Source: an uncultured Nitrospirales bacterium
Lineage (GTDB): Bacteria; Hydrogenedentota; Hydrogenedentia; Hydrogenedentales; GCA-2746185
Direction: 5' to 3'
Assembly: GCA_964620045.1 (NCBI GenBank)
Contig: CAZUJL010000001.1
Location: 522,592-586,591, forward strand
DNA length: 64,000 nt
Shown piece by piece: positions 5,015 through 29,662 of the stretch. Positions within the stretch are counted from its first letter, which is position 1, and the number at the start of each line of letters is the position of its first letter. The translations under genes and the position numbers were made by a program. The notes beneath the pieces were generated by a model, which saw only the letters and a program-made list of their open reading frames with translations, had not been told where the DNA came from and ran no database searches.

Positions 5015-5095
5015 ACGCCGGGCGGAAAGCTATTGCACCGCCCGGTGCGCATGTGTTACCTTGTATACGCACGTACATTTGAAGCCTCGCAAGTT

Positions 5096-5222
5096 GCTTA
5101 TCAAGAGCGGTGGAGGGACTGGCCCTGTGAAACCGCGGCAACCACGGCTTTTTCTTCGGAAAAAGACGAAGGTGCTAACTCCGACCCACCCCGTATACGC
5201 GGGGGTGCGGGAGAGATAAGTG
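5096..5222 (+). promoter_or_regulatory. SAM-I (S-box) riboswitch
   Basis: The sequence matches the S-box consensus. P1 is gCTTATCAAGAG ... AGATAAGt. The core reads GGTGGAGGGACTGGCCCtgtGAAaCCgcGGCAACC ... GGTGCTAAcTCC. There is an extended P4 insertion. Confidence 0.8.
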
Positions 5223-5326: not shown

Positions 5327-6628
5327 ATGGCGGCAGGCAAGCGGTATTTCACTGCACTGAAGGGTCGCGAGAGCGGCAAAGAATACTCGCCGGACGAAGT
5401 GCGGTACGTGTGCGAATTCGACTTCGGCCCGCTGGAAGTCAAATACGACTACGAAGCGATTGCGCGCGATCTGACCAAGGACGTCATCCAGTCCCGCCGC
5501 CCGAGCATGTGGCGTTACAAAGAATTACTACCGATCGAAGGCGAGCCGACCGTGGGCGCGCAGGCGGGCTTCACGCCGCTCGTAAAAGCGGACCGTCTCG
5601 CGAAGCGTCTCGGCGTGACCGGCGAGCTGTACGTGAAGAATGACAGCGTGTGTTACCCGACGCTCTCGTTCAAAGACCGCGTGGTCAGCGTCGCGCTCTC
5701 GCGCTCGAAAGAATTTGGATATAAGACCGTGGCCTGCGCGAGCACGGGCAACCTGGCCAACTCCGTCGCGGCGAATGCGGCGGCCGCCGGCCTCGAATGC
5801 TTCGTGTTCATCCCGCACGACCTCGAACCGGGCAAGGTGCTGGGTTCGCAGGTGTTCGGCGCGAACGTGATTCGCATCGACGGGCCTTACGACAAAGTGA
5901 ACCGCCTGTGCAGCGAAGTGGCGGACAAATACAAGTGGGCGTTTGCGAATGTGAACATGCGCCCGTACTACGCCGAAGGCAGCAAGACGATGGGCTTCGA
6001 GATCGCCGAGCAGCTTGGCTGGCGCCTGCCGGATCAGGTGGTCGTGCCGATGGCGAGCGGCTCGCTCATGTGCAAAATCGAAAAGGCCTTCAACGAGTTC
6101 AAGAAACTGAAGTTCGTCGAAGACCATCACGTGAAAATTTACGGCGGCCAGGCGGAAGGCTGTTCGCCGATTACCGAGGCCGTGAAGAAGGGCATCGACC
6201 TGATTAAGCCGGTGGAGAAGCCGGACACGATCGTGAAGTCGCTGGCGATCGGCAACCCGGCGGACGGCTTCTACGCCGCGCGCTGCATTCAAGATTCCGG
6301 CGGCTACAGCGAGAACCCGACGGACGCGGAAACGGTCGAGGGCATCCGCCTGTTGGCCGAGTGCGAAGGCATCTTCGCGGAGACGGCGGGCGGCGTGACC
6401 GTGGCCGCGGCGAAGCGCTTGTTCGAATCGGGCAAGCTCGATCGCAAGGGCTGTACGGTCATCTGCGTGACGGGCAATGGCCTGAAGACGAAAGAGTGCC
6501 TGGACGGGCAGTTCAAGACGCTCGACGCGATCGCGCCGAACCTCGGCGCGTTTGATACGCTGTACGACTCGTTGGGTTCGACCGGTCCCGCGGCGCGCGC
6601 GCCGAAGGCCGTGGCGGCGTTGGCTTAA
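5327..6628 (+). CDS. Threonine-synthase-like PLP-dependent enzyme (fold type II); candidate homocysteine-forming MetM-type enzyme
   Basis: PLP lysine motif SFKDRVVSVALSRSKEFGYKTVACASTGNLANSVAANAA. GAAAGG RBS. Sits downstream of the SAM-I riboswitch and upstream of the sulfur-carrier gene. Confidence 0.75.
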   Translation: MAAGKRYFTALKGRESGKEYSPDEVRYVCEFDFGPLEVKYDYEAIARDLTKDVIQSRRPSMWRYKELLPIEGEPTVGAQAGFTPLVKADRLAKRLGVTGELYVKNDSVCYPTLSFKDRVVSVALSRSKEFGYKTVACASTGNLANSVAANAAAAGLECFVFIPHDLEPGKVLGSQVFGANVIRIDGPYDKVNRLCSEVADKYKWAFANVNMRPYYAEGSKTMGFEIAEQLGWRLPDQVVVPMASGSLMCKIEKAFNEFKKLKFVEDHHVKIYGGQAEGCSPITEAVKKGIDLIKPVEKPDTIVKSLAIGNPADGFYAARCIQDSGGYSENPTDAETVEGIRLLAECEGIFAETAGGVTVAAAKRLFESGKLDRKGCTVICVTGNGLKTKECLDGQFKTLDAIAPNLGAFDTLYDSLGSTGPAARAPKAVAALA

Positions 6629-6678
6629 TTTTGTTGGGTGACACCGCCGGGAGGGCGGTGACGAAAGGATGCAAAAAC

Positions 6679-6957
6679 ATGGCTGTGAAGGTCCTGATTC
6701 CGACGCCGTTGCGCAACCTGACCGGCGGCAATGAGACGGTCGAAGCGAATGGCAAAACCATCGCGGAGATTTTTGTCGACCTCGAGCGCCGGCACCCCGG
6801 CATCCGCGAGCGCCTGTGCGACGACAAGGGCGAAATCCGCCGCTTCGTGAACGTCTATCACAATCAGGAAGACATCCGCTTCAAGGACGGCAAGCAAACG
6901 GCCGTGGCGGATGGCGACGACGTATCGATTGTGCCCGCAATTGCGGGTGGCTGCTGA
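6679..6957 (+). CDS. MoaD/ThiS/CysO-family sulfur-carrier protein (beta-grasp), C-terminus ...AGG-C
   Basis: ORF 6631..6957 trimmed to MAVKVLIP, which has AAAGGAT upstream. About 92 aa. Ends AIAGGC*, i.e. Gly-Gly plus one removable residue, like CysO/HcyS-type carriers. Confidence 0.6.
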   Translation: MAVKVLIPTPLRNLTGGNETVEANGKTIAEIFVDLERRHPGIRERLCDDKGEIRRFVNVYHNQEDIRFKDGKQTAVADGDDVSIVPAIAGGC

Positions 6958-6972
6958 GCGCGACCCATCCGC

Positions 6973-8631
6973 GTGATGCGCGCCGGAATGGATAGCCTCC
7001 GGCGCGCGGTCCGGCCGCTGGCGTGGGTGCTGGTGCCCGGAATTTTCTGGGTCATCTCGTGGAGCGAGTACCGCCTCCCCACGCTGCTCTTCCTTCCAGT
7101 TTTTCTCTTCTTCTCGGCGCCAATGCTCGCGGCGCTTCTTGCGCTGCACGTGGCGATGTTCGTGTTGGTCGCGTTTGCGCCTATACCGCGGCCGCCGGAT
7201 CTTTTGCTCGCGGTCAGCGCGATCCTGGGCCTGTGGTTTGGCCTGCGCGGCCAGCTTTTCACGGCGGGCCGGTTCGTCGCGCGCAGGGCCGGCTCCATAC
7301 GCGTCTTCGCGCTTTGCGCAGCGATAGTGTTGCCGCTCGTCGCACTCTTCCGAGGATTCCCGTGGTTCGCGTATCTGCTGCTCGGCGTGGGTTATTTCGC
7401 GCTGTATCGATTCCTGAAACCCTATGCGCCTGCTGCCGCGAAATCGCGTCGCGCGTTGGTCGTCAACATAACTTTGGCCGTTGTCGCCACTGCGTTCAGT
7501 CTCGGCGTGCTCGAACTCGGCGCGCGTTACCTCATTAAACTGCCGCCACCCAAACCGAATCTGGAAAACATGATGGTGGCGGACCCGAAGGCGCTGTGGG
7601 CGCCGCGTCCGAATTTCGAAATGGAAATGTCGTACCCCACGCCGACCGGCGAGCGCGTTCCGTTTAGGCTGCACCACTCGTCGCAAGGCCTGCGCGGCGA
7701 CGAAGTGCCGCCCAAGCAGCCGGGTGAATTTCGCGTGCTGATGCTGGGCGATTCGTTCACCTACGGCTGGAACGTGAGCCAGGGCGAGGATGTGCCGTCG
7801 CAATTGCAGGCGACCCTGCGTGCGGCGCACCCCGATCGCACAATCACGGTGATCAACCTCGGCGTACCGGCGTACGCGCCGTGGCAGGAACTCGAACTGC
7901 TCAAGGAACGCGGGCTCGCGTTCGCTCCGGATATAGTGATCCTGCAGCTTTTTCCGGCGAACGACATCACGGAGAGCCTGACGAAGTTTGGTCGCACATT
8001 GCCCACCTTTGGCCAGTGGGAAACGCACAAGATGTATCGGTGGAGGCAACAGCAGGATCGCGCGTATCGGCTGGAACGATGGCTACGCGCGCACAGCGCG
8101 GCGTACAACGTGTTTCGCGAATCAAACCACGGTGGACGCGGAATACCGGGCATGGTGTACCGCTTCCGCTTCACGCGCGGCACGGGCGCGATCAATGTCG
8201 ACACGGGCGCGGCGCGGACCTATTGGCTGGAAGCGCTGCGCACGGAGTGGTACCCCGAACTCACGGAATCGTGGACGGAATGCCAGAAGGATGTCGTCGC
8301 GATCGCCGATACCTGTAAGGCGAGCAACATAAAATTTCTCGCGTATGCGATCCCGCTCAATATCTTTTCCGATGCGGTGTGGCAATCCGCTTTTGATGAG
8401 TCGTCGCGCAAGGCCGGCGAATCGATCCCGTATGAGGCCTACAAGGACACGCGGCTCGCGCAAGAATTCCTGGAGGCGAACCAGTTGCCGTGGATGCCCT
8501 TGCTGGAACCGCTACAAGCCACCGGAAAACCCGACGCGTACTTCATCGCCGGGGACGGTCACCTCAATGCTGAGGGGTGCCGGTTGGTGGCGCGGTTGCT
8601 GGCGGAGCAGCTGGAATCGCAGGAGCTGTAG
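6973..8631 (+). CDS. Membrane-anchored SGNH/GDSL hydrolase (N-terminal ~6 TM helices + periplasmic SGNH domain)
   Basis: Hydrophobic N-terminal 190 aa. SGNH block I FRVLMLGDSFTYGW. Block V AGDGHLNAEG (D-x-x-H). Paralogous to 10604..11983. Confidence 0.7.
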   Translation: MMRAGMDSLRRAVRPLAWVLVPGIFWVISWSEYRLPTLLFLPVFLFFSAPMLAALLALHVAMFVLVAFAPIPRPPDLLLAVSAILGLWFGLRGQLFTAGRFVARRAGSIRVFALCAAIVLPLVALFRGFPWFAYLLLGVGYFALYRFLKPYAPAAAKSRRALVVNITLAVVATAFSLGVLELGARYLIKLPPPKPNLENMMVADPKALWAPRPNFEMEMSYPTPTGERVPFRLHHSSQGLRGDEVPPKQPGEFRVLMLGDSFTYGWNVSQGEDVPSQLQATLRAAHPDRTITVINLGVPAYAPWQELELLKERGLAFAPDIVILQLFPANDITESLTKFGRTLPTFGQWETHKMYRWRQQQDRAYRLERWLRAHSAAYNVFRESNHGGRGIPGMVYRFRFTRGTGAINVDTGAARTYWLEALRTEWYPELTESWTECQKDVVAIADTCKASNIKFLAYAIPLNIFSDAVWQSAFDESSRKAGESIPYEAYKDTRLAQEFLEANQLPWMPLLEPLQATGKPDAYFIAGDGHLNAEGCRLVARLLAEQLESQEL

Positions 8632-16414: not shown

Positions 16415-16451
16415 GCCCGGCCCCGGTTCGCACCGGGGCCGGTTTCTTTTT
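16415..16451 (+). terminator. Rho-independent terminator
   Basis: gcccggccccggttcgcaccggggccgg followed by tttctttttg. Confidence 0.65.
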
Positions 16452-16576: not shown

Positions 16577-17605
16577 ATGCCCGTCGTGAATTTCGAGAAA
16601 TACTGTGAAATGCTGGATCGCGCAACCAAGGGAAAGTTCGCTTACCCCGCGATCAACGCTTCCAACATGGAAACGATCAACGCGGCGCTGGAAGGCTTCG
16701 CGGCGGCCAAGAGCGACGGCATCATCCAGATGTCCACGGGCGCGGGCGAGTTTGCCTCCGGCAGCGCGAAGAAAATGGCCGTTGGCGCGATTTCGCTGGC
16801 CGAGCACGCCCACCGCGTCGCCGGGTTGTACGACATCAACATCGCCCTGCACACGGACCACTGCGTGCCGGAGAAGGTCGAGACCTTCATGATTCCGCTT
16901 ATCGAAGAAACCGAGCGGCGCATCAAGGAAGGCAAGGGACCGCTGTACAACAGCCACATGTTCGACGGCAGCGAGCTTCCGCTGGACAAGAACATGGAGA
17001 CCGCCGTGGCGCTGATGAAGCGCATGCAGAAAAATAACCAGATGCTCGAAATCGAAGCCGGCGTCGTCGGCGGCGAGGAAGACGGCATCGACAATACCGG
17101 CGCGCCGAAAGAAAAATTGTACACGACCCCGGAGGACATGGTGGCGGTGTACGAAGCGATGTCCAAGGTGCCGGGCGCGAAATACATGTTCGCGGCGACC
17201 TTCGGCAACGTGCACGGCGTGTACAAGCCGGGCAACGTGAAGCTGAAGCCGGAAATCCTCAAGAACGGCCAGGCGGCTGTTACGAAGAAATACGGCGCGA
17301 ACGCCGCGTTCTGGCTCGTGTTCCACGGCGGTTCGGGCTCGACGCAGGAAGAGATTCACGAGACGCTGAACTACGGCGTCATCAAGATGAACGTCGACAC
17401 CGACTGCCAGTACGCCTTCACGCGGCCGATCGCGGACCACATGATGAAGAACTACGACGGCGTGCTGAAGATCGACGGCGAAGTGGGCAGCAAGAAAGCC
17501 TACGACCCGCGCGCCTACCTGAAGGCGGGCCGCTCGAGTATGGCCGCGCGCGTGAAGCAGGCGTGCATCGATCTGAAGTCCGACGGGAAGACCATGGGCC
17601 GCTAA
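16577..17605 (+). CDS. fba: Fructose-bisphosphate aldolase, class II
   Basis: N-terminus MPVVNFEKYCEMLDRATKGKFAYPAINASNMET; 342 aa. A TATAAT box lies upstream at ~16484. Confidence 0.9.
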   Translation: MPVVNFEKYCEMLDRATKGKFAYPAINASNMETINAALEGFAAAKSDGIIQMSTGAGEFASGSAKKMAVGAISLAEHAHRVAGLYDINIALHTDHCVPEKVETFMIPLIEETERRIKEGKGPLYNSHMFDGSELPLDKNMETAVALMKRMQKNNQMLEIEAGVVGGEEDGIDNTGAPKEKLYTTPEDMVAVYEAMSKVPGAKYMFAATFGNVHGVYKPGNVKLKPEILKNGQAAVTKKYGANAAFWLVFHGGSGSTQEEIHETLNYGVIKMNVDTDCQYAFTRPIADHMMKNYDGVLKIDGEVGSKKAYDPRAYLKAGRSSMAARVKQACIDLKSDGKTMGR

Positions 17606-17627: not shown

Positions 17628-18548
17628 ATGAAGATATTGCTGGCCAAGCCGCGCGGGTTTTGCGCGGGCGTTGAACGGGCGATCGTCTGCGTGGAGCAGG
17701 CGCTCGAACGCTACGGCGCGCCGGTCTATGTGCTGAACGACATCGTGCACAACAAGGCGGTGGTGGACGACCTGAAAAGCAAGGGCGCCATCTTCGTCAA
17801 AAATCTCGACGACGTACCCGCCGGCGCGCACCTGCTGTTCAGTGCGCACGGCGTGGGCCCGGAGCGCTGGGCGCATGCCGAGCGCCTGAAGCTTGAAGTG
17901 ATCGACGCGACGTGTCCGCTCGTGGAGAAGGTGCACTACGAAGCGCGGCGCTTCGCGTCGAAGGATTTCACCATCGTCCTCGTCGGCGAAGAAGGCCACG
18001 ACGAAACCGTCGGCACGATGGGCTGGGCGCCGGAACACATCCGCCGTATCATGACCGTCGCCGAGGCCGAGGCGCTGCAGGTGCCCGACGAGAACAAAGT
18101 CGCCTTCATTACGCAGACCACGCTGAGCGTGGAAGACTGCGACGTCGTGGTGGCCGCGCTGCGCAAACGCTTCCCGAATATCCAGGGCCCGCCGAAGGCC
18201 GACATTTGCTATGCGACCTCGAACCGGCAGGCGGCCGTGCGCGCGCTCGTGCCGGATGTCGATCTCGTGCTGGTGGTGGGCGATCGCGAGAGCGCGAACA
18301 GCACGCGCCTGGCGGAGATTTCCGCGGAATATGGCAAGCCGAGCTTCCTCATCAGCAATGCCGCCTCGATCCGCGACGAGTGGATGCGCGGCGTGAATAC
18401 CGTGCTGGTGACTTCCGGTGCGTCGGTGCCGGAGCGGCTAGTAAAAGAAGTCCTCACGCATCTTGGACGTTTCGGCGCGACCGAAGTGCAGGAATGCGAG
18501 CTCGTTCAGGAAGACGTGCACTTCCGCCTGCCGGCGACCATCGCCTGA
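17628..18548 (+). CDS. ispH: 4-hydroxy-3-methylbut-2-enyl diphosphate reductase (IspH/LytB)
   Basis: MKILLAKPRGFCAGVERAI; three conserved Cys regions; 306 aa. Confidence 0.9.
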   Translation: MKILLAKPRGFCAGVERAIVCVEQALERYGAPVYVLNDIVHNKAVVDDLKSKGAIFVKNLDDVPAGAHLLFSAHGVGPERWAHAERLKLEVIDATCPLVEKVHYEARRFASKDFTIVLVGEEGHDETVGTMGWAPEHIRRIMTVAEAEALQVPDENKVAFITQTTLSVEDCDVVVAALRKRFPNIQGPPKADICYATSNRQAAVRALVPDVDLVLVVGDRESANSTRLAEISAEYGKPSFLISNAASIRDEWMRGVNTVLVTSGASVPERLVKEVLTHLGRFGATEVQECELVQEDVHFRLPATIA

Positions 18549-18583: not shown

Positions 18584-21415
18584 GTGTCGAATTCTCTGCC
18601 TGCCCTGCATGATCTCGCCGCGACCCGCGCGGATATTCGTTTCGACGCGCTGACGCGCCGGCTCTTCGCCACCGACGCCTCCATCTATCAAATTGAACCC
18701 AAGGGCGTAGCGTTTCCAAAGTCGTCCGCGGAGACCTCGGCCTTCGTGCAGGCGGCGGCCTCGGACAATGTCAGCGTGATTCCGCGCGGCGCGGGCACAG
18801 GTCTCGTAGGCGGAGCGATCGGCGACGGCCTTGTGATTGATCAGGCCCGGCACAATCGCCGCATCACGCGGCTGAACGTCGATGCGCGCACGGTGCATGT
18901 CGAAGCCGGCGTCGTGCTCGACCAACTCAATGCCTACCTGCGGCCGCACGGCTTGCGATTCGGGCCGGATGTCGCCACGAGTTCGCGCGCGACGCTCGGC
19001 GGCATGATCGCGAACAATTCCTCCGGCTCTCATGTGCCGGTGTATGGCACGACGATCGACCATGTGCGTTCGATCGATTTCGTGCTTGCCGATGGTCGTC
19101 AGGTGATCATCGGCTCCGAGGCCGGCGATCTCGAGTTCATTCATGCGCGCGCGGCGGCGATTCTGGAGCCCTGCCGCGCGGAACTGGACGCGCGCATGCC
19201 ACCCGGCCTGCTCAAGCGCTGGCCTGGCTATGGCATCGAAGACTGGTTGCGACGCGGCGCGGCATTGCCGTGGCTCATCGGCGGCAGCGAAGGCACGCTG
19301 GGCATCATTAGCGGCGCGGAACTTGCCCTGCATCCCCTGCCCACGCGCAAAGGCCTCGGCGCGATTTCGTTCGCGACCGTCGCCGACGCGATGCAGGCCG
19401 CCGTCGTGCTACTGGATTTGCACGCGGCCGCAATCGAGCACATCGATCGCGTGCTATTCGAACAAACGCGCGGCCAGCTCGCGTTTCGCAAGGGCCGTGC
19501 GTTGCTTGGGCTTGATGAGGCGCCGTGCGAAGCGATCTTGCTGGTGGAATTTTTCGGCGATGTCGACGCGCCGCTCGCCGAATTGCGACGCCGGAATCTC
19601 GGCCTGCGCACGCGCACCTTTACGGCAAACGACGACATGGACGCCATCTGGAACGTACGCAAGGCCGGGCTCTCGCTACTGTCCGGCTGCGTGGGCGCGG
19701 CCAAACCTGTGACGGGCATCGAAGACACCTGCGTGCGCCCGCAAGACCTGGCGGAATACGTACGGGCGCTGCAGGGCGTGCTGTGGCCGCTGGGACTAAA
19801 GGCGTCGTTTTACGGCCACGCGGCGGCTGGCTTGCTTCACGTGCGGCCGGTGCTCGATCTGCATTCGGCCGATGATCTGCGCAAATTCCGGAAACTCGGC
19901 GACGAAGTTTCGACGATTGTGAAACAGTTCAAGGGATCCATCTCGGCGGAGCACGGTGTTGGCCTTGCGCGCACGGAGTATATGGCCGCGCACCTGGGCC
20001 CGACGCTCACCGAGGCCATGCGCGAGATCAAAACCACCTTCGATCCGAAAAACGTGTTCAACCCCGGCAAGCTCGTGCACGACGGGCGGTATCGATTCGA
20101 CACGCGGTTGCGCTGGGGCGCGGGGTATCACCTCGAGTTGCCGTTCGCGCCGAAGCTCGAATTCGCATTTAAGGATCAGTCCTTCGTCGGCAATCTCGAA
20201 CAATGCAACGGCTGCGGCGGGTGTCGCAAGGACGCACCGACGATGTGCCCAACGTATATCGCGACGGGCGAAGAAATCATGTCCACACGCGGCCGCGCGA
20301 ACGTGATCCGCGCGGCGCTGGATGGCACGCTCGAGGGCGGTCTTGCGTCGGCGGAACTCGAAGCCGCGCTGTCGAATTGCCTGTCCTGTAAGGCCTGCAC
20401 GACGGAATGCCCGAGCAACGTAAACCTTGCGCTGCTCAAAGCCGAACTGAACCACGCAAAACATCGACAGTTAGGTTTGCCGTTGCGCGATCGTCTGCTG
20501 AGCCGCGTCGATCTGATCGGCGCGATGGGCAGCCGCGCGCCAACGCTGGCCAATGCGGCGTTGTCGTTCGGGCCTGCGCGTCGCGCGATGCAGGGCGCGG
20601 TCGGGCTTTCGGCGGAACGGCCACTGCCAAAATTCGCGCGCGAGCGCTTCGACGAATGGTTTGCGCGGCACAAGCCGAATCGCGTGCCCACGCGCGGACG
20701 CGTCGTGCTGTGGGACGATTGCTTCACGCGCTACTACGACCCGAAGATCGGCATGGCGGCCGTGCAGGTGCTGGAAGCGGCCGGATTCGAGGCGGTGTTG
20801 CCCAAGGATCGCGCGTGTTGCGGTCGACCGGCGTTCAGCCTCGGGCGGCTCGACCTTGCGGAAGAATGGGCCGAGCACAACGCGAATCTGCTCTCGCGCA
20901 TTGACGAAGATACACCCATCCTGTTTCTCGAACCGTCGTGTTTTTCGATGATGTACGACGACTATCGCGAGCTGGATGTGCTCGGCTCCGACAATCTCCG
21001 CGGCCGCGCGCGGCTCTTCGAGCAATTCCTGGCGGAGGTGTTGGATCGGGACCCCTTCGCCCTGCGCTTCAAGCCGATGTCCGCGCGGGCGGCCATACAC
21101 ACGCATTGCCATGCAAAAGCGCTCACCGGAACCGGCGCGACGCCGCGCGTGCTGGGGCGTGTGCCGGAGTGCGACGCGCGGGTGCTGGATACGGCGTGCT
21201 GCGGCATGGCCGGGGCCTTCGGCGCGCTGGCGGAGAAGCAGGAACTCTCGGGGAAACTGGGCGCGTTGTTGGCAGAAAAACTCGAAGACGCGCCCGCGGA
21301 TGCCTTTGTAATCGCGTCCGGTACAAGCTGTCGTCAACAGATCGAATACACAACGAATCGCCGCCCCTTGCACGTGGCGGAATTCCTGGCGATGGCGCTG
21401 GAGCCGACGCGGTGA
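18584..21415 (+). CDS. FAD-linked oxidase fused to 4Fe-4S and CCG cysteine-rich domains (YdiJ/GlcD-GlcF-like 2-hydroxyacid dehydrogenase)
   Basis: N-terminal FAD_binding_4 (RGAGTGLVGGAIG). Central ferredoxin motifs (CNGCGGCRKDAPTMCP; CLSCKACTTECP). C-terminal CCG motifs (ACCGRPAF; CCGMAGAFG). 943 aa. Confidence 0.8.
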   Translation: MSNSLPALHDLAATRADIRFDALTRRLFATDASIYQIEPKGVAFPKSSAETSAFVQAAASDNVSVIPRGAGTGLVGGAIGDGLVIDQARHNRRITRLNVDARTVHVEAGVVLDQLNAYLRPHGLRFGPDVATSSRATLGGMIANNSSGSHVPVYGTTIDHVRSIDFVLADGRQVIIGSEAGDLEFIHARAAAILEPCRAELDARMPPGLLKRWPGYGIEDWLRRGAALPWLIGGSEGTLGIISGAELALHPLPTRKGLGAISFATVADAMQAAVVLLDLHAAAIEHIDRVLFEQTRGQLAFRKGRALLGLDEAPCEAILLVEFFGDVDAPLAELRRRNLGLRTRTFTANDDMDAIWNVRKAGLSLLSGCVGAAKPVTGIEDTCVRPQDLAEYVRALQGVLWPLGLKASFYGHAAAGLLHVRPVLDLHSADDLRKFRKLGDEVSTIVKQFKGSISAEHGVGLARTEYMAAHLGPTLTEAMREIKTTFDPKNVFNPGKLVHDGRYRFDTRLRWGAGYHLELPFAPKLEFAFKDQSFVGNLEQCNGCGGCRKDAPTMCPTYIATGEEIMSTRGRANVIRAALDGTLEGGLASAELEAALSNCLSCKACTTECPSNVNLALLKAELNHAKHRQLGLPLRDRLLSRVDLIGAMGSRAPTLANAALSFGPARRAMQGAVGLSAERPLPKFARERFDEWFARHKPNRVPTRGRVVLWDDCFTRYYDPKIGMAAVQVLEAAGFEAVLPKDRACCGRPAFSLGRLDLAEEWAEHNANLLSRIDEDTPILFLEPSCFSMMYDDYRELDVLGSDNLRGRARLFEQFLAEVLDRDPFALRFKPMSARAAIHTHCHAKALTGTGATPRVLGRVPECDARVLDTACCGMAGAFGALAEKQELSGKLGALLAEKLEDAPADAFVIASGTSCRQQIEYTTNRRPLHVAEFLAMALEPTR

Positions 21416-23076
21416 GTGCGGACTCGGCCGAGGACAACCTCGCGCGCGTTATCCACTACCACGATCGCACGAAACACGACTTCAACCGTTCCGCGCGCGG
21501 GCCGGGGTATCTCGATTGGGCAAACCAGCCCGATCCGTTTCGGCGTTACGATGGCGCGCCGTTGTATTTGCTGCCGCTTGACGAAAGCGAGCCGGCGACG
21601 CCTTACGAAAGTCTGTATGCGCGCGCTGTGAAGCCGCGCGCGCTGGACGTCCATTCGCTCGGCTGGTTTTTGGAATGTTCGCTCGGGGTATCCGCGACAA
21701 AATCCGCGGGCGGTTCGACGTGGAAACTGCGGTGCAATCCTTCCAGCGGCAACCTCCATCCGACCGAGGGGTATGTGCTTGCGCCGGCACTTTCTGAATT
21801 GTCAGAGACCCCCGGCGTCTATCACTACCGCGCCGACGAGCATGCCTTGGAACAACGGTGCGCATTATCCGCCGATGCCTGGAATGCTCTCGCGAATGAG
21901 TTCCCGGCGGGCACATTTTTCGCCGGGCTAAGCTCGATTCACTGGCGCGAGGCATGGAAGTACGGCGAGCGTGCGTTCCGTTACTGCAACCACGATGTCG
22001 GCCACGCACTTGGCGCGCTGCGCTATGCCGCCGCGGCCCTTGGCTGGCGGTGCGTACTGCTGCGTGGATTGAGTGACGGCGACATCGCGTCGTTGCTGGG
22101 CCTTGCGCAGAACGACACGGCCGCGGAGCCGGAACATCCCGATCTGATGATCGCGATCGTAACCAGCGAGGACGATCATTCGACGCCTACAATGCTTGCA
22201 ACCGAAACCTATACCGCTGGAAGCGACTGGCGTGGCACGCCAAATGCCCTCAGCGATGAGCATGTCGACTGGGCCGTTATCGGCGAAACGGCCGCAGCCT
22301 GCATTAAACCGCGCACCGAGACTGCACCGCACACGATAACGACCAATACGCGCGCAATCACGGCATCTCACATCACGGAGATCACCGCGGGGCGAATCTT
22401 TCGCCAGCGGCGCAGCGCGATCGACATGGACGGAGTATCCACGCTTTCGCGCGAAGTGTTCTATACGATGCTGGAACGTGTGATGCCGCGCGATGGGCGG
22501 CCGCCTTTCGACGTGTGGAGGTACTCGCCGGAGATCCACCTTGGGCTGTTCGTGCATCGCGTCGAAAACCTTGCGCCGGGACTTTATTTCTTACTGCGCA
22601 ATGCCGCACACCAAGACGCGCTCAAATCGGAAATGCGGACAGACTTCATCTGGGCCGCGCCGCAGGACTGCCCCCCACACCTTCCGCTGTATCACCTCGC
22701 CAGCGGCGACGGCCGCGGACTCGCGGCGCAGTTAAGTTGCATGCAGAGCATCGCCGGGGCCGGCGCGTTCAGCCTGGGCATGATCGCGCGTTTCGAGGCG
22801 CCATTGCGCGAACACGGCGCCTGGTTTTATCCCCGCCTCTTCTGGGAGGCCGGCCTGATCGGGCAGGCGCTGTACCTCGAGGCGGAGGCCGTCGGCCTGC
22901 GCGCCACGGGCATCGGGTGCTACTTCGACGATCCGGTGCACCGCGTCTTCGGTCTGCGCGGCCATGCGTTCCAGTCGCTATACCACTTCACAATCGGCGG
23001 GCCCGTGGACGACCCGCGCCTGACGAATCTGCCGCCGTACAGCGCTGAGCGGCGCGCGCGGCGCGGTTGGGTGTAA
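21412..23076 (+). CDS. Tandem nitroreductase-fold protein, SagB/ThcOx-type dehydrogenase family
   Basis: The GTG start overlaps the upstream stop (GTGA). N-terminal YHDRTKH signature. Two nitroreductase-like halves, about 554 aa. The 20938 ORF start is an artefactual extension. Confidence 0.6.
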   Translation: MSADSAEDNLARVIHYHDRTKHDFNRSARGPGYLDWANQPDPFRRYDGAPLYLLPLDESEPATPYESLYARAVKPRALDVHSLGWFLECSLGVSATKSAGGSTWKLRCNPSSGNLHPTEGYVLAPALSELSETPGVYHYRADEHALEQRCALSADAWNALANEFPAGTFFAGLSSIHWREAWKYGERAFRYCNHDVGHALGALRYAAAALGWRCVLLRGLSDGDIASLLGLAQNDTAAEPEHPDLMIAIVTSEDDHSTPTMLATETYTAGSDWRGTPNALSDEHVDWAVIGETAAACIKPRTETAPHTITTNTRAITASHITEITAGRIFRQRRSAIDMDGVSTLSREVFYTMLERVMPRDGRPPFDVWRYSPEIHLGLFVHRVENLAPGLYFLLRNAAHQDALKSEMRTDFIWAAPQDCPPHLPLYHLASGDGRGLAAQLSCMQSIAGAGAFSLGMIARFEAPLREHGAWFYPRLFWEAGLIGQALYLEAEAVGLRATGIGCYFDDPVHRVFGLRGHAFQSLYHFTIGGPVDDPRLTNLPPYSAERRARRGWV

Positions 23077-23108
23077 AATCCCTGCGGGGAACGGGGGACG
23101 CTCGCCGC

Positions 23109-23690
23109 ATGACGCCGGATCAACTCAATGCTTACTGGACGCGCACGTTTCCAGAGTGTCCGCCCGTCGGGTTTCTGCTCAAGCACATCTACAAAGATCG
23201 CGTTGCGCGCTTCCGCAGCTTTGAGAATGGCAAGAAGCACGCGGCCGCCGAACCAGATTACGTCCAGGTGTGCGCGCGGCAAAACACGTTGCTCGATCAT
23301 TTGTTCGTCGGCGAGCCGCAGGTCGTGCTGATTACGACCATTCCATCGGACAACGAGATGCCACCGAAGAACGCGCCGTCGTTTCTGAACTTCGATCCGA
23401 ACGGCCGCTTCGTGCACAGCCTCGGCATGCACGAATTCCAACTGGAGTTTCAAACGCCGTCGTACTGGCATTTGTTTATGAGCAGCTCGGATTTCGCGCC
23501 CGGTTGTTTCGATCCCGTCCTGCGCGCGGCCGCGGAGGACATGGCGGTCGCGGGCGTGGTCAATGTGATTTTTCTCGGGCCGTCGTCGCGCCGATTGCTG
23601 CACGTCTACCCCGGCGGCGCGGACGCCATTCTCGAAAACGATATGAAGCGCGAACAAATCCAGTCGCGCTATGCGGACTGGTCCGCCTGA
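23109..23690 (+). CDS. Hypothetical protein (193 aa), third gene of the oxidase/SagB-like operon
   Basis: ATG at 23109, 33 nt after the SagB-like stop. No family recognised. Cys- and His-containing. Confidence 0.45.
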   Translation: MTPDQLNAYWTRTFPECPPVGFLLKHIYKDRVARFRSFENGKKHAAAEPDYVQVCARQNTLLDHLFVGEPQVVLITTIPSDNEMPPKNAPSFLNFDPNGRFVHSLGMHEFQLEFQTPSYWHLFMSSSDFAPGCFDPVLRAAAEDMAVAGVVNVIFLGPSSRRLLHVYPGGADAILENDMKREQIQSRYADWSA

Positions 23691-23693
23691 GCC

Positions 23694-24257
23694 TTACACG
23701 AAGAAGGGATTGAACCGCCGCTCGACGCCGATGGTCGAGCACGGTCCGTGCCCCGGGCACACGATAGTGTCGTCCGGCAAGGTAAACAGGTTCTTGCGCA
23801 CATTCTCGATTTGCCGCGCGGAGTCTTCCGGATTGGACGTGCCGCCCACCGAGCCCGCGAACAACGCATCGCCGGTGAACACAATCCCCGGGAAAATCAG
23901 GCTCAAGGCAACCGCCGTGTGCCCGGCGGTGTCCACCGTACGCCCCGCCAACCGGCCGATCTGCACCGTATCGCCGGGTTGCGCGACCATAGCGCTCGCC
24001 ACGCCACCCGGAGACGGAATCGCGCTAATCACGCGCGCGCCAAAATGTTTCGCGGCATCCGGGATGGCCTGGACATGGTCCCAATGCTCGTGCGTAACGA
24101 AAATGGTCGTGAGTTTCAGGTTGTGACGCTCGACATACTCCGGCAGGCGCAGATCGAAATCGCCGCAATCCACCAGCAGGGCCTCCCGCGTATCGGGGCA
24201 GGCGTAGATAAACGAATTTACTTCGATCGGATTGAGCCGGAAGTGGCCGAGCATCAT
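23694..24257 (-). CDS. Small MBL-fold metallo-hydrolase (glyoxalase-II/YcbL-like)
   Basis: HxHxDH motif VTHEHWDH. Trimmed to the MMLGHF start. That start ATG overlaps the upstream stop (ATGA). Confidence 0.75.
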   Translation of the reverse strand: MMLGHFRLNPIEVNSFIYACPDTREALLVDCGDFDLRLPEYVERHNLKLTTIFVTHEHWDHVQAIPDAAKHFGARVISAIPSPGGVASAMVAQPGDTVQIGRLAGRTVDTAGHTAVALSLIFPGIVFTGDALFAGSVGGTSNPEDSARQIENVRKNLFTLPDDTIVCPGHGPCSTIGVERRFNPFFV

Positions 24258-24748
24258 TGCTTGATCCCGTCCAGCTTCGCGTTCTCCACGTTCGGCTTTC
24301 CCGAAACGTCGCGCAAGTCCGCGCCGGTCAGGTTCGCGCGCCGCATGATCGCGCGATCGAGATTCGCCTCCCGGAAGTCCGCACCCTGAAAGTCCGCGTT
24401 GCCGGGCCGCGCGTAGTACAAATTCGCGCGGCGAAAATCGGCGCCGTGTGCGCGTGTCCCCACCAGATTGCAGCGGCTCAATTCCGCATCGGCGAACACG
24501 GCCCCATCCGCAATCGCGCCGCCCAGCACGGCGAATTCGAGGTTGGCGCCGGTGAAATCCGCGCCGGCGCAGTCGGCCCCATCCAGAAAACACCCAAACA
24601 AATTCGCGCCGCGAAACACCGCGCCGGCCAGCGACATGCCGGACAGCCGCGCATGGCGCAGATCCGCGCCGGAAAAATCAGCACCGGAAAGATCGTGGCC
24701 GCGCAGGTCTCGTCCGCGCAGATCTTCATTGGCAAACGACGCCGACAT
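24254..24748 (-). CDS. Pentapeptide-repeat protein (~165 aa)
   Basis: Nearly the entire protein is A(D/N)LxG pentapeptide repeats (ADFSGADLRHARLSGMSLAGAVFRGANL ...). The start overlaps the upstream stop (TGATG). Confidence 0.8.
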   Translation of the reverse strand: MSASFANEDLRGRDLRGHDLSGADFSGADLRHARLSGMSLAGAVFRGANLFGCFLDGADCAGADFTGANLEFAVLGGAIADGAVFADAELSRCNLVGTRAHGADFRRANLYYARPGNADFQGADFREANLDRAIMRRANLTGADLRDVSGKPNVENAKLDGIKQ

Positions 24749-25428
24749 CAATGCACGTCCTGCTTGGACAATTTCGCTTCGGCCCAGTCGGCATAAAACG
24801 CGACTTCCTTGATACAGGCGCGAAATTCCGCCGGCGTGGCCTTCTGCGCGCGCAAGGAATGCACCAGCTCGAACCACGCCTGGCCGTCCTCATCGACAAT
24901 CGCGAAGCTGGAATGCGGCAGGCGTTCGTTGGTGCGTAGCGCCCATTCAAAATGTTTCGCATCCACCGGGCCGCAACGGCTGCGCACACGGATCGTCTGC
25001 GCGCCGGCCTCGGAGGTGCCGTGCGAGGCAAATACCTTCTGCGTGCGCCCGTCCTTCAGCGTGACGATGATTTCGTAGCCGCCGTCGGCCGCGCGCGCAC
25101 TGCGTTTGCCCGGCCGTTCGATGGCCCGCACGAGTTCATCCAGCGTGAGCAATGCTTCCTTGCTGGTGCGCCCGGCATCGCGCCAGGTGGCATCGCCGAG
25201 CGCCCGCTGCACCGCGGCGCGCACATCGGTGTCCGTATCCTCGGCAAACATCGCCAGGGCACCGCGCGCACGCGAGACGACCTTGCCCAGAAAATCGGCC
25301 GCGTCGCGCCGGGTCACCCAAGTGCCGCCGCGGTTCGACAGTTGCGCCACCGCGCGATCGAGATCGTCTGCCATGCGCACCTCCTCCGGACCGGCCATTG
25401 TAGCGAACCCGCCCCCTTCATATACCAC
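24748..25428 (-). CDS. Hypothetical protein, N-terminal HEAT/PBS-lyase-like repeats + uncharacterised C-terminal domain
   Basis: VRAAVQRALGD-type repeat. C-terminal ~115 aa unknown. True start is probably MADDL (~25374). First gene of a three-gene minus-strand operon. Confidence 0.45.
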   Translation of the reverse strand: MVYEGGGFATMAGPEEVRMADDLDRAVAQLSNRGGTWVTRRDAADFLGKVVSRARGALAMFAEDTDTDVRAAVQRALGDATWRDAGRTSKEALLTLDELVRAIERPGKRSARAADGGYEIIVTLKDGRTQKVFASHGTSEAGAQTIRVRSRCGPVDAKHFEWALRTNERLPHSSFAIVDEDGQAWFELVHSLRAQKATPAEFRACIKEVAFYADWAEAKLSKQDVH

Positions 25429-28252: not shown

Positions 28253-29662
28253 CTAGGCGACGATCTCGGTGATCGGCTTGCCGAGGCCATCGCGCGTAAC
28301 GTAGAACGGGCGCTTCTCGATGACGTAGTTGTGCCGCGGGCTGATGCCCATGGCGCGGTAGATCGTTGCGTGCAGGTCTTCGATCACGACGCGTTTCTCC
28401 AACGTCTTGCACGGGCGCTCGTCGGCCGTTTTACCGTGGAGATACGCCTTGCGCGCGCCGCCGCCGAACATCAGCACGCAGCCGGCATCGGTGAAGTGGC
28501 GGTGCATGCCGTAGTGCTTGAGCTCGGTCATTACGTCCGGCACTTCGACCTGATCTGTTACCTTCTTGTCCGGCTTGCCCTCGGTGAGCATGTCGCGGCT
28601 GAACTCGCTGGCAAGCACGATCAACGTGCGATCGAGCAGGCCGCGTTCTTCGAGATCAAGCACCAACTGCGCGATGGGCCGATCGATACGCTGCTTCAAT
28701 TCCACAAGACGTGTGTGTCCGTTCTCGTGCGTGTCCCAATGCTCGAAGGGCACATATTCCGTGGTCACTTCGATGAACCGCGCGCCGTACTCCGTCAAGC
28801 GCCGCGCGAGCAGACATCCCTTGCCGAAACGGCTCGTGCCATAGGCTTCGAGCACTTCCGGTTTTTCGTCGGCCAGATCAAACGCCTTGGCCGCGTCGCT
28901 CGAGAGCAGGCGGTCGGCGCCTTCGAGCGAGTGCATCAGCGAATCGCGGTGATACTCGCTGCCGAGCTGCGCGATCGGGCTGGCGGCCACCATCTTGTTG
29001 TGCAGATCGCGGCGCCGGGCATAACGCGCGCCCGTCATGCCCGCGGGCGGGCGCACCGTCGCCTGCGCGGCGGACGGATCGGGCACGAAGAAGGGGCCGA
29101 ACTCCGAACCGAGGAAACCAGCCGTGTGGAAGGCTTTTAGCTCCTCGCTCTCCCCCACGCTCAGACTCTGGCCGATATCGATAAACGCGGGCACGTCCGG
29201 ATGCTTCGGTCCAAGCGTCCTGGCAATCACGGCGCCAATGTGCGGCGCGGCGACCGTAAGCGGCGGCGCATAGCCTGTGTGCCAGTTGTACTGATGGCGC
29301 GAATGCAGAATCGCGCCGAGGTCGCCGGCGGTGTACGTGCGGATCAGCGTACCGCGATCCATCACCTGGCCGATGTGTTCGAGGCCTTCGCTGAACTCGA
29401 TACCGTCCACAATCGTCGGCACGGGCTTAAATGTGCTGAGCACTTCGGAGCTGGCGAGTCCGGGTTCGAACGCGCGATAGCGCTTCGGATCGAAGGTCTC
29501 GGTGTGCGCCATGCCGCCGCCCATCCAGAGGATGATGAGTGTGTCGGCGGTGGCGGCGGGAACCGGCTCGGTGTCTTCCGCGCGGCCAATGACGGGCGCG
29601 CCGGACGCGAGCGCGCCCAGCGTGGCGGCAGTCGAGTATTTCAGGAAATCGCGGCGTTTCAT
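28253..29662 (-). CDS. DUF1501 protein (Tat-signal, sulfatase-like fold), PVC-type partner of PSCyt proteins
   Basis: Twin-arginine signal MKRRDFLKYSTAATLGALASG; DUF1501 architecture. Confidence 0.8.
   Translation of the reverse strand: MKRRDFLKYSTAATLGALASGAPVIGRAEDTEPVPAATADTLIILWMGGGMAHTETFDPKRYRAFEPGLASSEVLSTFKPVPTIVDGIEFSEGLEHIGQVMDRGTLIRTYTAGDLGAILHSRHQYNWHTGYAPPLTVAAPHIGAVIARTLGPKHPDVPAFIDIGQSLSVGESEELKAFHTAGFLGSEFGPFFVPDPSAAQATVRPPAGMTGARYARRRDLHNKMVAASPIAQLGSEYHRDSLMHSLEGADRLLSSDAAKAFDLADEKPEVLEAYGTSRFGKGCLLARRLTEYGARFIEVTTEYVPFEHWDTHENGHTRLVELKQRIDRPIAQLVLDLEERGLLDRTLIVLASEFSRDMLTEGKPDKKVTDQVEVPDVMTELKHYGMHRHFTDAGCVLMFGGGARKAYLHGKTADERPCKTLEKRVVIEDLHATIYRAMGISPRHNYVIEKRPFYVTRDGLGKPITEIVA

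Follow-up and report, generated by a model that had tools for sequence, protein, structure and literature searches.

The tight packing of three genes at one locus raises the question of whether they form a pathway of their own or are ordinary neighbours. The first (OX) encodes an FAD- and Fe-S-binding oxidase, the second a tandem SagB-like protein, and the third a protein of family DUF3885. A sequence-only reading of the 64,000-nucleotide stretch in which they lie (the window) had suggested that the trio might form a dedicated pathway, possibly related to the machinery that oxidises azolines in RiPPs.

A check of open reading frames and junctions recovered all three genes (Table 1). OX and the SagB-like gene overlap by 4 nt as first described, the sequence GTGA at 21412 combining the GTG start of the second gene with the stop codon of the first, and this is in keeping with the translational coupling proposed for the pair. 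A GGAG lies 7 nt 5' of this GTG, and no other start codon occurs from the OX-internal region up to the conserved YH..TKH motif (residues 16–22). Gene callers picked the same start in the SagB-like genes of relatives. An overlap of 4 nt between stop and start is the commonest type in bacterial operons, so the overlap alone is not remarkable. The third gene follows after 32 nt (23077–23108), not the 33 nt originally counted.

Table 1 Features of the locus, with positions in the window.
Feature	Position	Strand	Details
Terminator-like hairpin, strong	16417..16442	+	After the DUF2911 gene; 11-bp stem with 10 G-C pairs, then a T-run
fba, class II fructose-bisphosphate aldolase	16577..17605	+	First gene of the co-directional string; PF01116, 5.5e-78
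ispH (LytB)	17628..18548	+	22 nt 3' of fba, 35 nt 5' of OX; PF02401, 9.5e-91
OX	18584..21415	+	GTG start; 943 aa
SagB-like gene	21412..23076	+	GTG start inside the GTGA of the OX stop; 554 aa
YHDRTKH motif	21457..21477	+	Residues 16–22 of the SagB-like protein
K183-Y184 of the SagB-like protein	21958..21963	+	Aligns with K201-Y202 of McbC (6GOS_C)
DUF3885 gene	23109..23690	+	ATG start; 193 aa
Metallo-beta-lactamase-fold gene, convergent	23694..24257	-	Stop 3 nt from the DUF3885 stop

The trio closes a string of genes that all point the same way, fba-ispH-OX-SagB-DUF3885. The only strong terminator-like hairpin in the region of the string precedes fba, at a distance of 134 nt, and probably delimits the transcription unit on its upstream side; the convergent metallo-beta-lactamase-fold gene marks the downstream boundary. 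Consensus scans for promoters or terminators inside the string gave matches at the level expected from shuffled sequences. We infer that the string is co-transcribed. Genes within about 8 kb comprise DUF885, DUF2911, fba, ispH, the metallo-beta-lactamase-fold gene, a pentapeptide protein gene, folD, ugd and DUF1501. PADLOC returned no defence system match for the trio or the three downstream genes, and no rRNA or tRNA genes were found in the window.

HMM searches of OX matched FAD_binding_4, FAD-oxidase_C, Fer4 and CCG, bearing out its initial description as YdiJ-like. The FAD domain, of the D-2-hydroxyacid dehydrogenase type, spans residues 39–497; the GlpC-like Fe-S/CCG module to which it is fused carries Fer4 at residues 538–613 and two CCG motifs (C745-C746-G747 and C872-C873-G874). 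Both CCG motifs (745–747 and 872–874) are invariant among 20 orthologues, as are the cysteines C541/C544/C547/C555 and C599/C602/C605/C609. With FAD_binding_4, FAD-oxidase_C, two [4Fe-4S] motifs and two CCG motifs, OX has the architecture of YdiJ, and the same fusion of GlcD-like FAD and GlpC-like Fe-S/CCG parts occurs in YdiJ of E. coli and Pantoea (PMC9504171) and in Dld-II-type Fe-S D-lactate dehydrogenases. OX is shorter than YdiJ (943 against 1018 aa) and is not a YdiJ orthologue, because it scores 484.7 bits on the equivalog NF049975, for which the cutoff is 1350. Among solved structures, its FAD domain is closest to D-lactate dehydrogenase, LctD, glycolate oxidase and D-2-hydroxyglutarate dehydrogenase. 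The family is very large (more than 6,000 word-index matches), and standard annotation already names OX 'FAD-binding and (Fe-S)-binding domain-containing protein'. OX is a YdiJ/Dld-II-type D-2-hydroxyacid dehydrogenase whose FAD domain, by homology, would oxidise a substrate of the D-lactate, D-2-hydroxyglutarate or glycolate type. From there electrons would travel over two [4Fe-4S] clusters and the GlpC-like CCG module, to be taken up by a quinone or another acceptor.

The SagB-like protein comprises two nitroreductase-fold halves that match TIGR03605, and Pfam Nitroreductase is matched as well. The score of the whole protein on TIGR03605 is borderline, at 90.8 bits in two stretches against a cutoff of 78.4; alone, the N-terminal half reaches 70.2 bits and the C-terminal half 24.9, each below the cutoff, which is passed only by summing. 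HMMs, PDB 3EO7 and a structure model are the basis for calling the protein a tandem, and BLASTP of one half against the other detected no similarity (E=11). The N-terminal YHDRTKH motif is present as first reported; Y16, H17, K21 and H22 are invariant in 23 family members, and the motif is a family signature common to 3EO7 (HYHERTKYD). Invariance in 23 sequences extends to W182 K183 Y184 G185 E186 R187, within which lies the Lys-Tyr pair that aligns with McbC. A conserved Lys-Tyr motif near the flavin is reportedly found in SagB/ThcOx-type dehydrogenases (Melby et al. 2014; Ghilarov et al. 2019). The structure was predicted with a pLDDT of 85.6 and a pTM of 0.92, and Foldseek ranked 3EO7, ThcOx, 3HJ9, BmdC and McbC, in that order, ahead of generic nitroreductases for this model; the ThcOx and BmdC fold matches span the oxidase domain only (about 250 columns). 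Because the TIGR03605 score, the Lys-Tyr alignment and the fold ranking all support the SagB type, the protein does not lack a SagB signature, and its earlier assignment as a tandem SagB/ThcOx-type protein stands. Standard annotation already names it 'SagB/ThcOx family dehydrogenase'; judged by sequence, it is a SagB/ThcOx-type and presumably FMN-dependent enzyme.

The top fold match, 3EO7, is Ava_2154 of Anabaena variabilis, an unpublished and uncharacterised JCSG structure labelled 'putative nitroreductase'. It matches the SagB-like protein from end to end as a two-domain pseudo-dimer (profile E 2.8e-41 across both halves; Foldseek E 3.7e-26, TM 0.64/0.73) at an identity of only about 20–30%, and carries R-Y where the SagB-like family carries K-Y. 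Since 3EO7 is itself uncharacterised, the match names a family and not a function. A literature search found no functional study of the tandem SagB-like family, and 3EO7 appeared there only as a molecular-replacement model, having been the search model for the ThcOx and BmdC structures (PMC5108345, PMC8795117). The SagB-like protein is thus placed in a very large uncharacterised family whose sole solved structure is 3EO7.

The third gene was assigned to DUF3885 (PF13021) at 79.7 bits against a gathering cutoff of 23, covering model positions 2–184 of 189. No solved-fold relative was found for its product. Its subfamily has 30 word-index matches at 45–100% identity, all within the lineage discussed below, and it is absent from two loci of that lineage (L174 and L175); it is a lineage-restricted, dispensable gene.

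Conservation of the trio across PVC genomes had been envisaged. The trio proved syntenic in one lineage only, and that lineage, assigned through a named relative, is probably Hydrogenedentota, not PVC. Among the lineage relatives gene order matches across the entire neighbourhood, with fba, ispH, folD and ugd (UDP-glucose dehydrogenase) all in place and SagB-like identities of 56–100%. Outside the lineage, 80 GTDB species loci that carry a SagB-like orthologue were inspected (the best 80 of more than 596 species loci), and OX and the DUF3885 gene are both missing from 79 of them; 62 of these loci include 2.9 kb or more of sequence upstream. The reverse census gave the same fraction: the SagB-like gene is missing from 79 of the 80 metagenome loci that carry an OX orthologue (53–61% identity); downstream flanks of at least 500 nt are available for 66 of these OX-centred loci, and of at least 1.7 kb for 43. 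Inside the lineage, 10 of 11 members retain a 4-nt RTGA overlap at the junction of OX with the SagB-like gene, at OX identities down to about 61%, and in a second Hydrogenedentota locus (L073) OX is followed by one unknown ORF and then the SagB-like gene. No case was found of the adjacency surviving decay of the surrounding synteny; OX and the SagB-like gene are adjacent only where fba-ispH is collinear, with L073 a partial exception. As everything is collinear inside the lineage, the adjacency is little informative. The kept overlap and L073 could nevertheless reflect selection for co-production and not inertia.

Elsewhere the SagB-like family is very large (more than 6,000 word-index matches; 886 clusters of 50% identity at E<=1e-30). 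About 50% identity is retained across more than eight phyla and, in hundreds of species, the gene mostly stands alone; such a distribution does not fit the earlier statement that proteins of this kind are normally found in azoline-oxidising RiPP machinery. Orthologues outside the lineage, at 47–56% identity, occur in Nitrospirota, Planctomycetota, Proteobacteria, Acidobacteriota, Omnitrophota, Photobacterium and others. No conserved neighbour emerged from 39 diverse loci, where each Pfam family was present in at most 4 of the 137 neighbours. Tight coupling was seen at some loci to genes for thioredoxin-like DUF255, SelO and rhodanese proteins, as were fusions to an aldo/keto-reductase-like extension or to rhodanese. 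SelO was considered as an independent multi-phylum neighbour and downgraded; the SagB-like proteins of the three SelO-linked loci are 77–87% identical, so these loci count as one subclade. The DUF255, SelO and rhodanese neighbours are the better lead to the function of the family; together with the fusions, they suggest that it takes electrons from, or hands them to, variable partners.

The reading that we favour, with a probability of roughly 0.6, is that the trio is the downstream end of a housekeeping string, co-directional and specific to the lineage, in which two independently widespread redox enzymes are juxtaposed and translationally coupled. We regard it as an ordinary local gene arrangement and not a new pathway because it is confined to one lineage, belongs to a housekeeping string and is accompanied by no peptide-antibiotic machinery. 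Under this reading, OX and the SagB-like enzyme would have become adjacent in the lineage, with translational coupling and probably no obligatory functional link. The SagB-like enzyme, a 3EO7-type intramolecular pseudo-dimer, would act on some non-RiPP substrate. Substrates and cofactors are those that we infer for each protein.

The best of the alternatives, which we consider doubtful, is a lineage-specific redox partnership in which the SagB-like flavoprotein would take electrons from OX or donate them to it. Electrons might pass from a D-2-hydroxyacid through FAD, [4Fe-4S] and CCG to the FMN enzyme, which would reduce a substrate that is possibly thiol- or sulfur-related, or they might flow in reverse; translational coupling might ensure equimolar amounts of the two proteins. 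The overlap kept through most of the lineage and the proximity of the two genes in L073 are consistent with such a partnership, as are the homology of the CCG modules to GlpC/HdrB-type modules and the coupling or fusion of the SagB-like family elsewhere to other redox or sulfur proteins. For YdiJ-type enzymes no physiological electron acceptor is known (PMC9504171), which leaves room for a protein partner. Against it stand the absence of the pairing from 79 of 80 loci in each of the two censuses outside the lineage and the limited information carried by adjacency in a fully collinear lineage.

A broader version, and an unlikely one, is that the widespread orphan SagB-like family serves thiol/sulfur redox homeostasis and is translationally coupled, lineage by lineage, to interchangeable redox partners (DUF255, SelO, rhodanese, the aldo/keto-reductase-like fusion and, here, the YdiJ-type OX). 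OX would then be its physiological electron donor or an HdrB-like CCG-module partner.

Slightly less probable still is that gene 2 encodes an ordinary NAD(P)H-dependent nitroreductase or flavin reductase for detoxification, unrelated to its neighbours. The Pfam Nitroreductase match and the many generic nitroreductases in the fold-search list would suit this, but no NCBIfam equivalog of the NfsA, NfsB or Acg type was matched, only SagB-type models, and SagB/ThcOx-type structures head the fold ranking. The tandem arrangement, with its many invariant His, Cys, Lys and Tyr residues, also differs from the homodimeric NfsA/B.

The azoline dehydrogenases of RiPP/NRPS pathways, McbC (6GOS/6GRH), ThcOx (5LQ4) and BmdC (7LY4-7), share the SagB-type nitroreductase-fold domain of gene 2. 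They use FMN, which is putative for gene 2, and are homodimers or RRE-carrying proteins encoded beside cyclodehydratase, NRPS and precursor genes, whereas gene 2 encodes a fused pseudo-dimer without an RRE and is found alone or with housekeeping or redox genes. No YcaO or E1-like cyclodehydratase gene lies within about 8 kb, and the families listed for the 137 neighbours at the 39 other loci do not include YcaO; RRE and precursor genes were likewise looked for in the window and at these loci, and none was found. The trio junctions measure 35, -4, 32 and 3 nt, too short for a precursor peptide gene at any of them, and Pfam and NCBIfam searches detected no RRE domain, the SagB-like protein having only nitroreductase/SagB domains. 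Despite the TIGR03605 match above the cutoff, the alignment of K183-Y184 with McbC K201-Y202 and a fold closest after 3EO7 to ThcOx, BmdC and McbC, a SagB-type enzyme of azoline-oxidising or other peptide-modifying (RiPP-like) machinery, with OX as a new accessory oxidase, is very improbable and largely refuted by this genomic context, by halves that each fall below the TIGR03605 cutoff, and by about 50% identity across phyla in lone genes with no conserved neighbour, the pattern of a housekeeping-type gene and not of a natural-product cluster. The proposed dedicated pathway is likewise not borne out by a trio found in one lineage, whose main partners occur without each other in nearly all loci surveyed outside it, which lacks cyclodehydratase, precursor and RRE, and whose third gene is missing from L174 and L175.

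As found, the locus matters little: both enzymes were already recognised by standard annotation, and they lie side by side as a local feature of a single lineage. It is a caution that a TIGR03605 match does not imply RiPP chemistry for the tandem SagB-like family, and the operon packing with fba and ispH makes it a documented case of adjacency that is not pathway evidence. For the large orphan SagB-like family, the recurrent tight neighbours elsewhere, which are thiol/sulfur redox proteins, offer a lead. Were OX and the SagB-like protein redox partners, the pairing would help to assign the electron acceptor of YdiJ-type dehydrogenases; were the family's partners interchangeable, it would provide a handle both for de-orphaning the 3EO7 family and for the YdiJ-type acceptor.

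The sequence-only reading described three open reading frames, the first (OX) overlapped at its stop by the GTG start of the second (the SagB-like gene). The coordinates and this junction were confirmed: OX stop and SagB-like start share GTGA, a 4-nt overlap. The close adjacency proposed for the third gene (the DUF3885 gene) also held, with a gap of 32 nt in place of 33 nt. The SagB-like start is preceded by GGAG at a distance of 7 nt, is the only start codon available 5' of the conserved N-terminal motif without a long extension into OX, and has its equivalent chosen by gene callers in relatives. Gaps of 22 nt (fba-ispH) and 35 nt (ispH-OX) were found upstream, the sole strong terminator-like hairpin lies 5' of fba, and the stop of a convergent gene for an MBL-fold protein lies 3 nt from that of the DUF3885 gene. 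The short gaps, the hairpin and the convergent gene together make fba-ispH-OX-SagB-like-DUF3885 a likely transcription unit. Because this five-gene string combines glycolysis, isoprenoid synthesis and the trio, operon membership here was not taken as pathway evidence. The sole Rfam match in the window was a SAM-I riboswitch (78.7 bits; gathering score 44.4), and no tRNA or rRNA genes were found in the window.

Features of the window and of the comparison loci (L numbers; genome or metagenome stretches)
Feature	Stretch	Positions	Strand	Start	Product
SAM-I riboswitch RF00162	window	5095-5222	+		
terminator-like hairpin	window	16417-16442			
fba (upstream of trio)	window	16577-17605	as trio		
ispH (between fba and OX)	window	17628-18548	as trio		
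OX	window	18584-21415		GTG	943 aa
SagB-like gene	window	21412-23076		GTG	554 aa
DUF3885 gene	window	23109-23690		ATG	193 aa
convergent three-gene string	window	23694-25398	-		MBL-fold protein, 187 aa; pentapeptide-repeat protein; 216-aa protein with weak HEAT match
DUF1501 gene, then PSCyt1/PSCyt2/PSD1 gene	window	28253-29662 and beyond	-		
counterpart of the DUF1501 pair	L081	14842-17665			
SagB-like gene, two ORFs	L171	135-1827			195 aa + 347 aa
ispH, OX, SagB-like gene, then convergent MBL gene	L174	4324-6567			
ORF between OX orthologue and SagB-like gene	L073	1270-2150			~321 aa
DUF255 gene	L067 (Luteitalea)	5332-7899			
DUF255 gene	L076 (Photobacterium)	5731-7938			
DUF255 gene	L071 (Burkholderiaceae)	5700-7877			
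SelO gene	L035	6193-7935			
SelO gene	L042	5987-7756			
SelO gene	L063	4362-6038			
rhodanese-domain gene	L067	9641-10243			200 aa
rhodanese-domain gene	L053	2340-2924			200 aa
SagB-like fusion	L034	7998-11075			~1030 aa

The whole block is collinear in relatives whose SagB-like proteins are 56-100% identical to that of the window (L081-L091, L171-L175), and in most of them the downstream region from the MBL gene to folD to ugd is collinear as well. The closest named relative, one of these, was submitted as 'Candidatus Hydrogenedentes bacterium', so the lineage is probably Hydrogenedentota rather than PVC. An RTGA overlap between OX and the SagB-like gene is retained in 10 of 11 lineage loci, the other (L087) having a 5-nt gap. 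In L171, a single metagenome contig, the SagB-like gene was called as two ORFs owing to a frameshift, from assembly error or pseudogene, and the DUF3885 gene still comes after it. The latter gene is missing in L174 and L175, where the MBL gene directly follows the SagB-like gene, and it is therefore not an obligatory third component. Its product is a Pfam DUF3885 member (79.7 bits) with only 30 relatives in a word-index search, all 45-100% identical; its structure was modelled confidently (pLDDT 87), and no sequence or fold relative was found among solved structures. The three-gene string beyond it, whose gene ends overlap or abut, is kept in the lineage, including L173 and L174. Further downstream lies a DUF1501 and PSCyt1/PSCyt2/PSD1 pair, typical of Planctomycetota- and Verrucomicrobiota-type genomes, which may explain the PVC assignment in the sequence-only reading.

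Gene 1 had been read as encoding a YdiJ-like FAD/Fe-S/CCG protein, and Pfam bore this out, matching FAD_binding_4 (aa 39-175), FAD-oxidase_C (253-497), a two-cluster Fer4 region (538-613) and CCG (707-790). Twenty orthologues all retain unchanged the two ferredoxin-type cysteine motifs and a pair of CCG motifs, at 745-747 and 872-874. The best NCBIfam model was the YdiJ D-2-hydroxyglutarate dehydrogenase equivalog, whose score of 484.7 bits fell well short of its cutoff (1350), and the C-terminal third matched GlpC. The nearest solved FAD domains are those of D-lactate dehydrogenases, LctD, glycolate oxidase and D-2-hydroxyglutarate dehydrogenase. Taken together, these matches class OX as a putative YdiJ/Dld-II-type D-2-hydroxyacid dehydrogenase.

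OX and the SagB-like protein both come from very large families: word-index searches returned over 6,000 matches for each, and at E ≤ 1e-30 the SagB-like protein matched 886 clusters of 50% identity. At about 50% identity it spans Nitrospirota, Planctomycetota, Proteobacteria, Acidobacteriota, Omnitrophota, Nitrospinota, Myxococcota and Photobacterium. The nearest named relatives, mostly Verrucomicrobiota and Hydrogenedentota for OX, and Hydrogenedentota, Planctomycetota and Nitrospirota for the SagB-like protein, hint that the two may be differently distributed. Among the best 80 SagB-like-centred GTDB species loci, 62 of which had an upstream flank of at least 2.9 kb, an OX orthologue was nearby in one (L073) and DUF3885 in none. 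L073 is another Hydrogenedentota MAG, in which OX and the SagB-like gene are separated by one ORF without a Pfam match on either strand. Conversely, the SagB-like gene occurred in one of 80 OX-centred metagenome loci (OX identity 53-61%; downstream flank at least 500 nt in 66), namely L091, which carries the same fba-ispH block as the lineage. The sequence-only reading had called for the trio's conservation to be checked across PVC genomes; the pairing proved confined to one lineage, with the partner absent from 79 of 80 loci in each set. No description of it was found in the searched literature. Each of the two proteins falls in a family that is known and already annotated.

We favour, with a probability of about 0.6, a lineage-specific juxtaposition in which two independently widespread redox enzymes and a dispensable small protein form the tail of a housekeeping operon. 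Electron transfer between the CCG module of OX and the SagB-like flavoprotein, as a local partnership, would accord with the overlap kept in the lineage, with the second arrangement in L073, and with the still unknown physiological electron acceptor of YdiJ-type enzymes (PMC9504171); we regard it as a tentative alternative. In eight Nitrospirales loci (L003, L009, L021, L030, L037, L052, L072, L079) a gene for a GlpC-like Fer4+CCG protein of ~443 aa follows the SagB-like gene at a distance of ~2.5-7 kb. This protein and the C-terminal third of OX share 25-28% identity. Its recurrence there probably reflects lineage synteny, though the CCG theme is in common.

Two stretches of the SagB-like protein matched Pfam Nitroreductase, and its TIGR03605 (SagB family) score was 90.8 bits (cutoff 78.4), a sum over two halves giving 70.2 (N) and 24.9 bits (C) alone; BLASTP detected no similarity between the halves. 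Its sole solved homologue by sequence is 3EO7 (Ava_2154 of Anabaena, 511 aa), an unpublished structural-genomics 'putative nitroreductase', which both halves match and whose N-terminal motif, HYHERTKYD, resembles HYHDRTKHD here. YHDRTKH is a signature of the 3EO7-like family, with Y16, H17, K21 and H22 invariant across 23 members. A profile of these members extends to BmdC, McbC and ThcOx, and aligns the invariant W182-K183-Y184 with McbC F200-K201-Y202, the Lys-Tyr pair being what we take to be the catalytic motif of azoline dehydrogenases. For the AlphaFold2 model (pLDDT 85.6, pTM 0.92) the best match was 3EO7, aligned along the full length (E 3.7e-26), followed by ThcOx, 3HJ9, BmdC and McbC. 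Generic nitroreductases ranked lower, so the label 'tandem SagB-type' is right at the family level and a generic nitroreductase role is unlikely.

Pfam families were counted among 137 neighbours of the SagB-like gene in 39 non-Nitrospira-type loci, and none occurred more than four times. The most recurrent independent neighbour was DUF255 (Thioredox_DsbH, YyaL/SPATA20-like), which in L067 and L076 immediately precedes the SagB-like gene and overlaps it by 4 nt, and in L071 is divergently oriented; the SagB-like clades concerned are only 44-53% identical to one another. SelO, a protein adenylyltransferase linked to redox homeostasis (PMC10364804), lies directly upstream on the same strand in L035, L042 and L063. 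Since the SagB-like proteins of these loci are 77-87% identical (SelO 76-85%), they count as one subclade; its labelling under different phyla would reflect horizontal transfer or misbinning. A rhodanese-domain gene lies immediately 3' in L067 and L053, and the 824-aa protein P0415 fuses the tandem module to rhodanese and ankyrin repeats. The top matches in the 50%-representative library were ~1030-aa fusions (P0280, P0282, P0284 and that in L034) with a ~480-aa C-terminal extension weakly matching the aldo/keto reductase family.

Such neighbours and fusions suggest a redox role with changeable partners, perhaps thiol- or sulfur-related, rather than peptide maturation. The link once drawn to azoline-oxidising RiPP machinery is very improbable, with no YcaO, RRE or precursor gene near the trio and redox-type neighbours elsewhere; nor did the trio or the three downstream genes match any PADLOC defence model. 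The 3EO7-like orphan family, for its size, conservation and recurrent thiol-/sulfur-redox neighbours, is the more interesting by-product.
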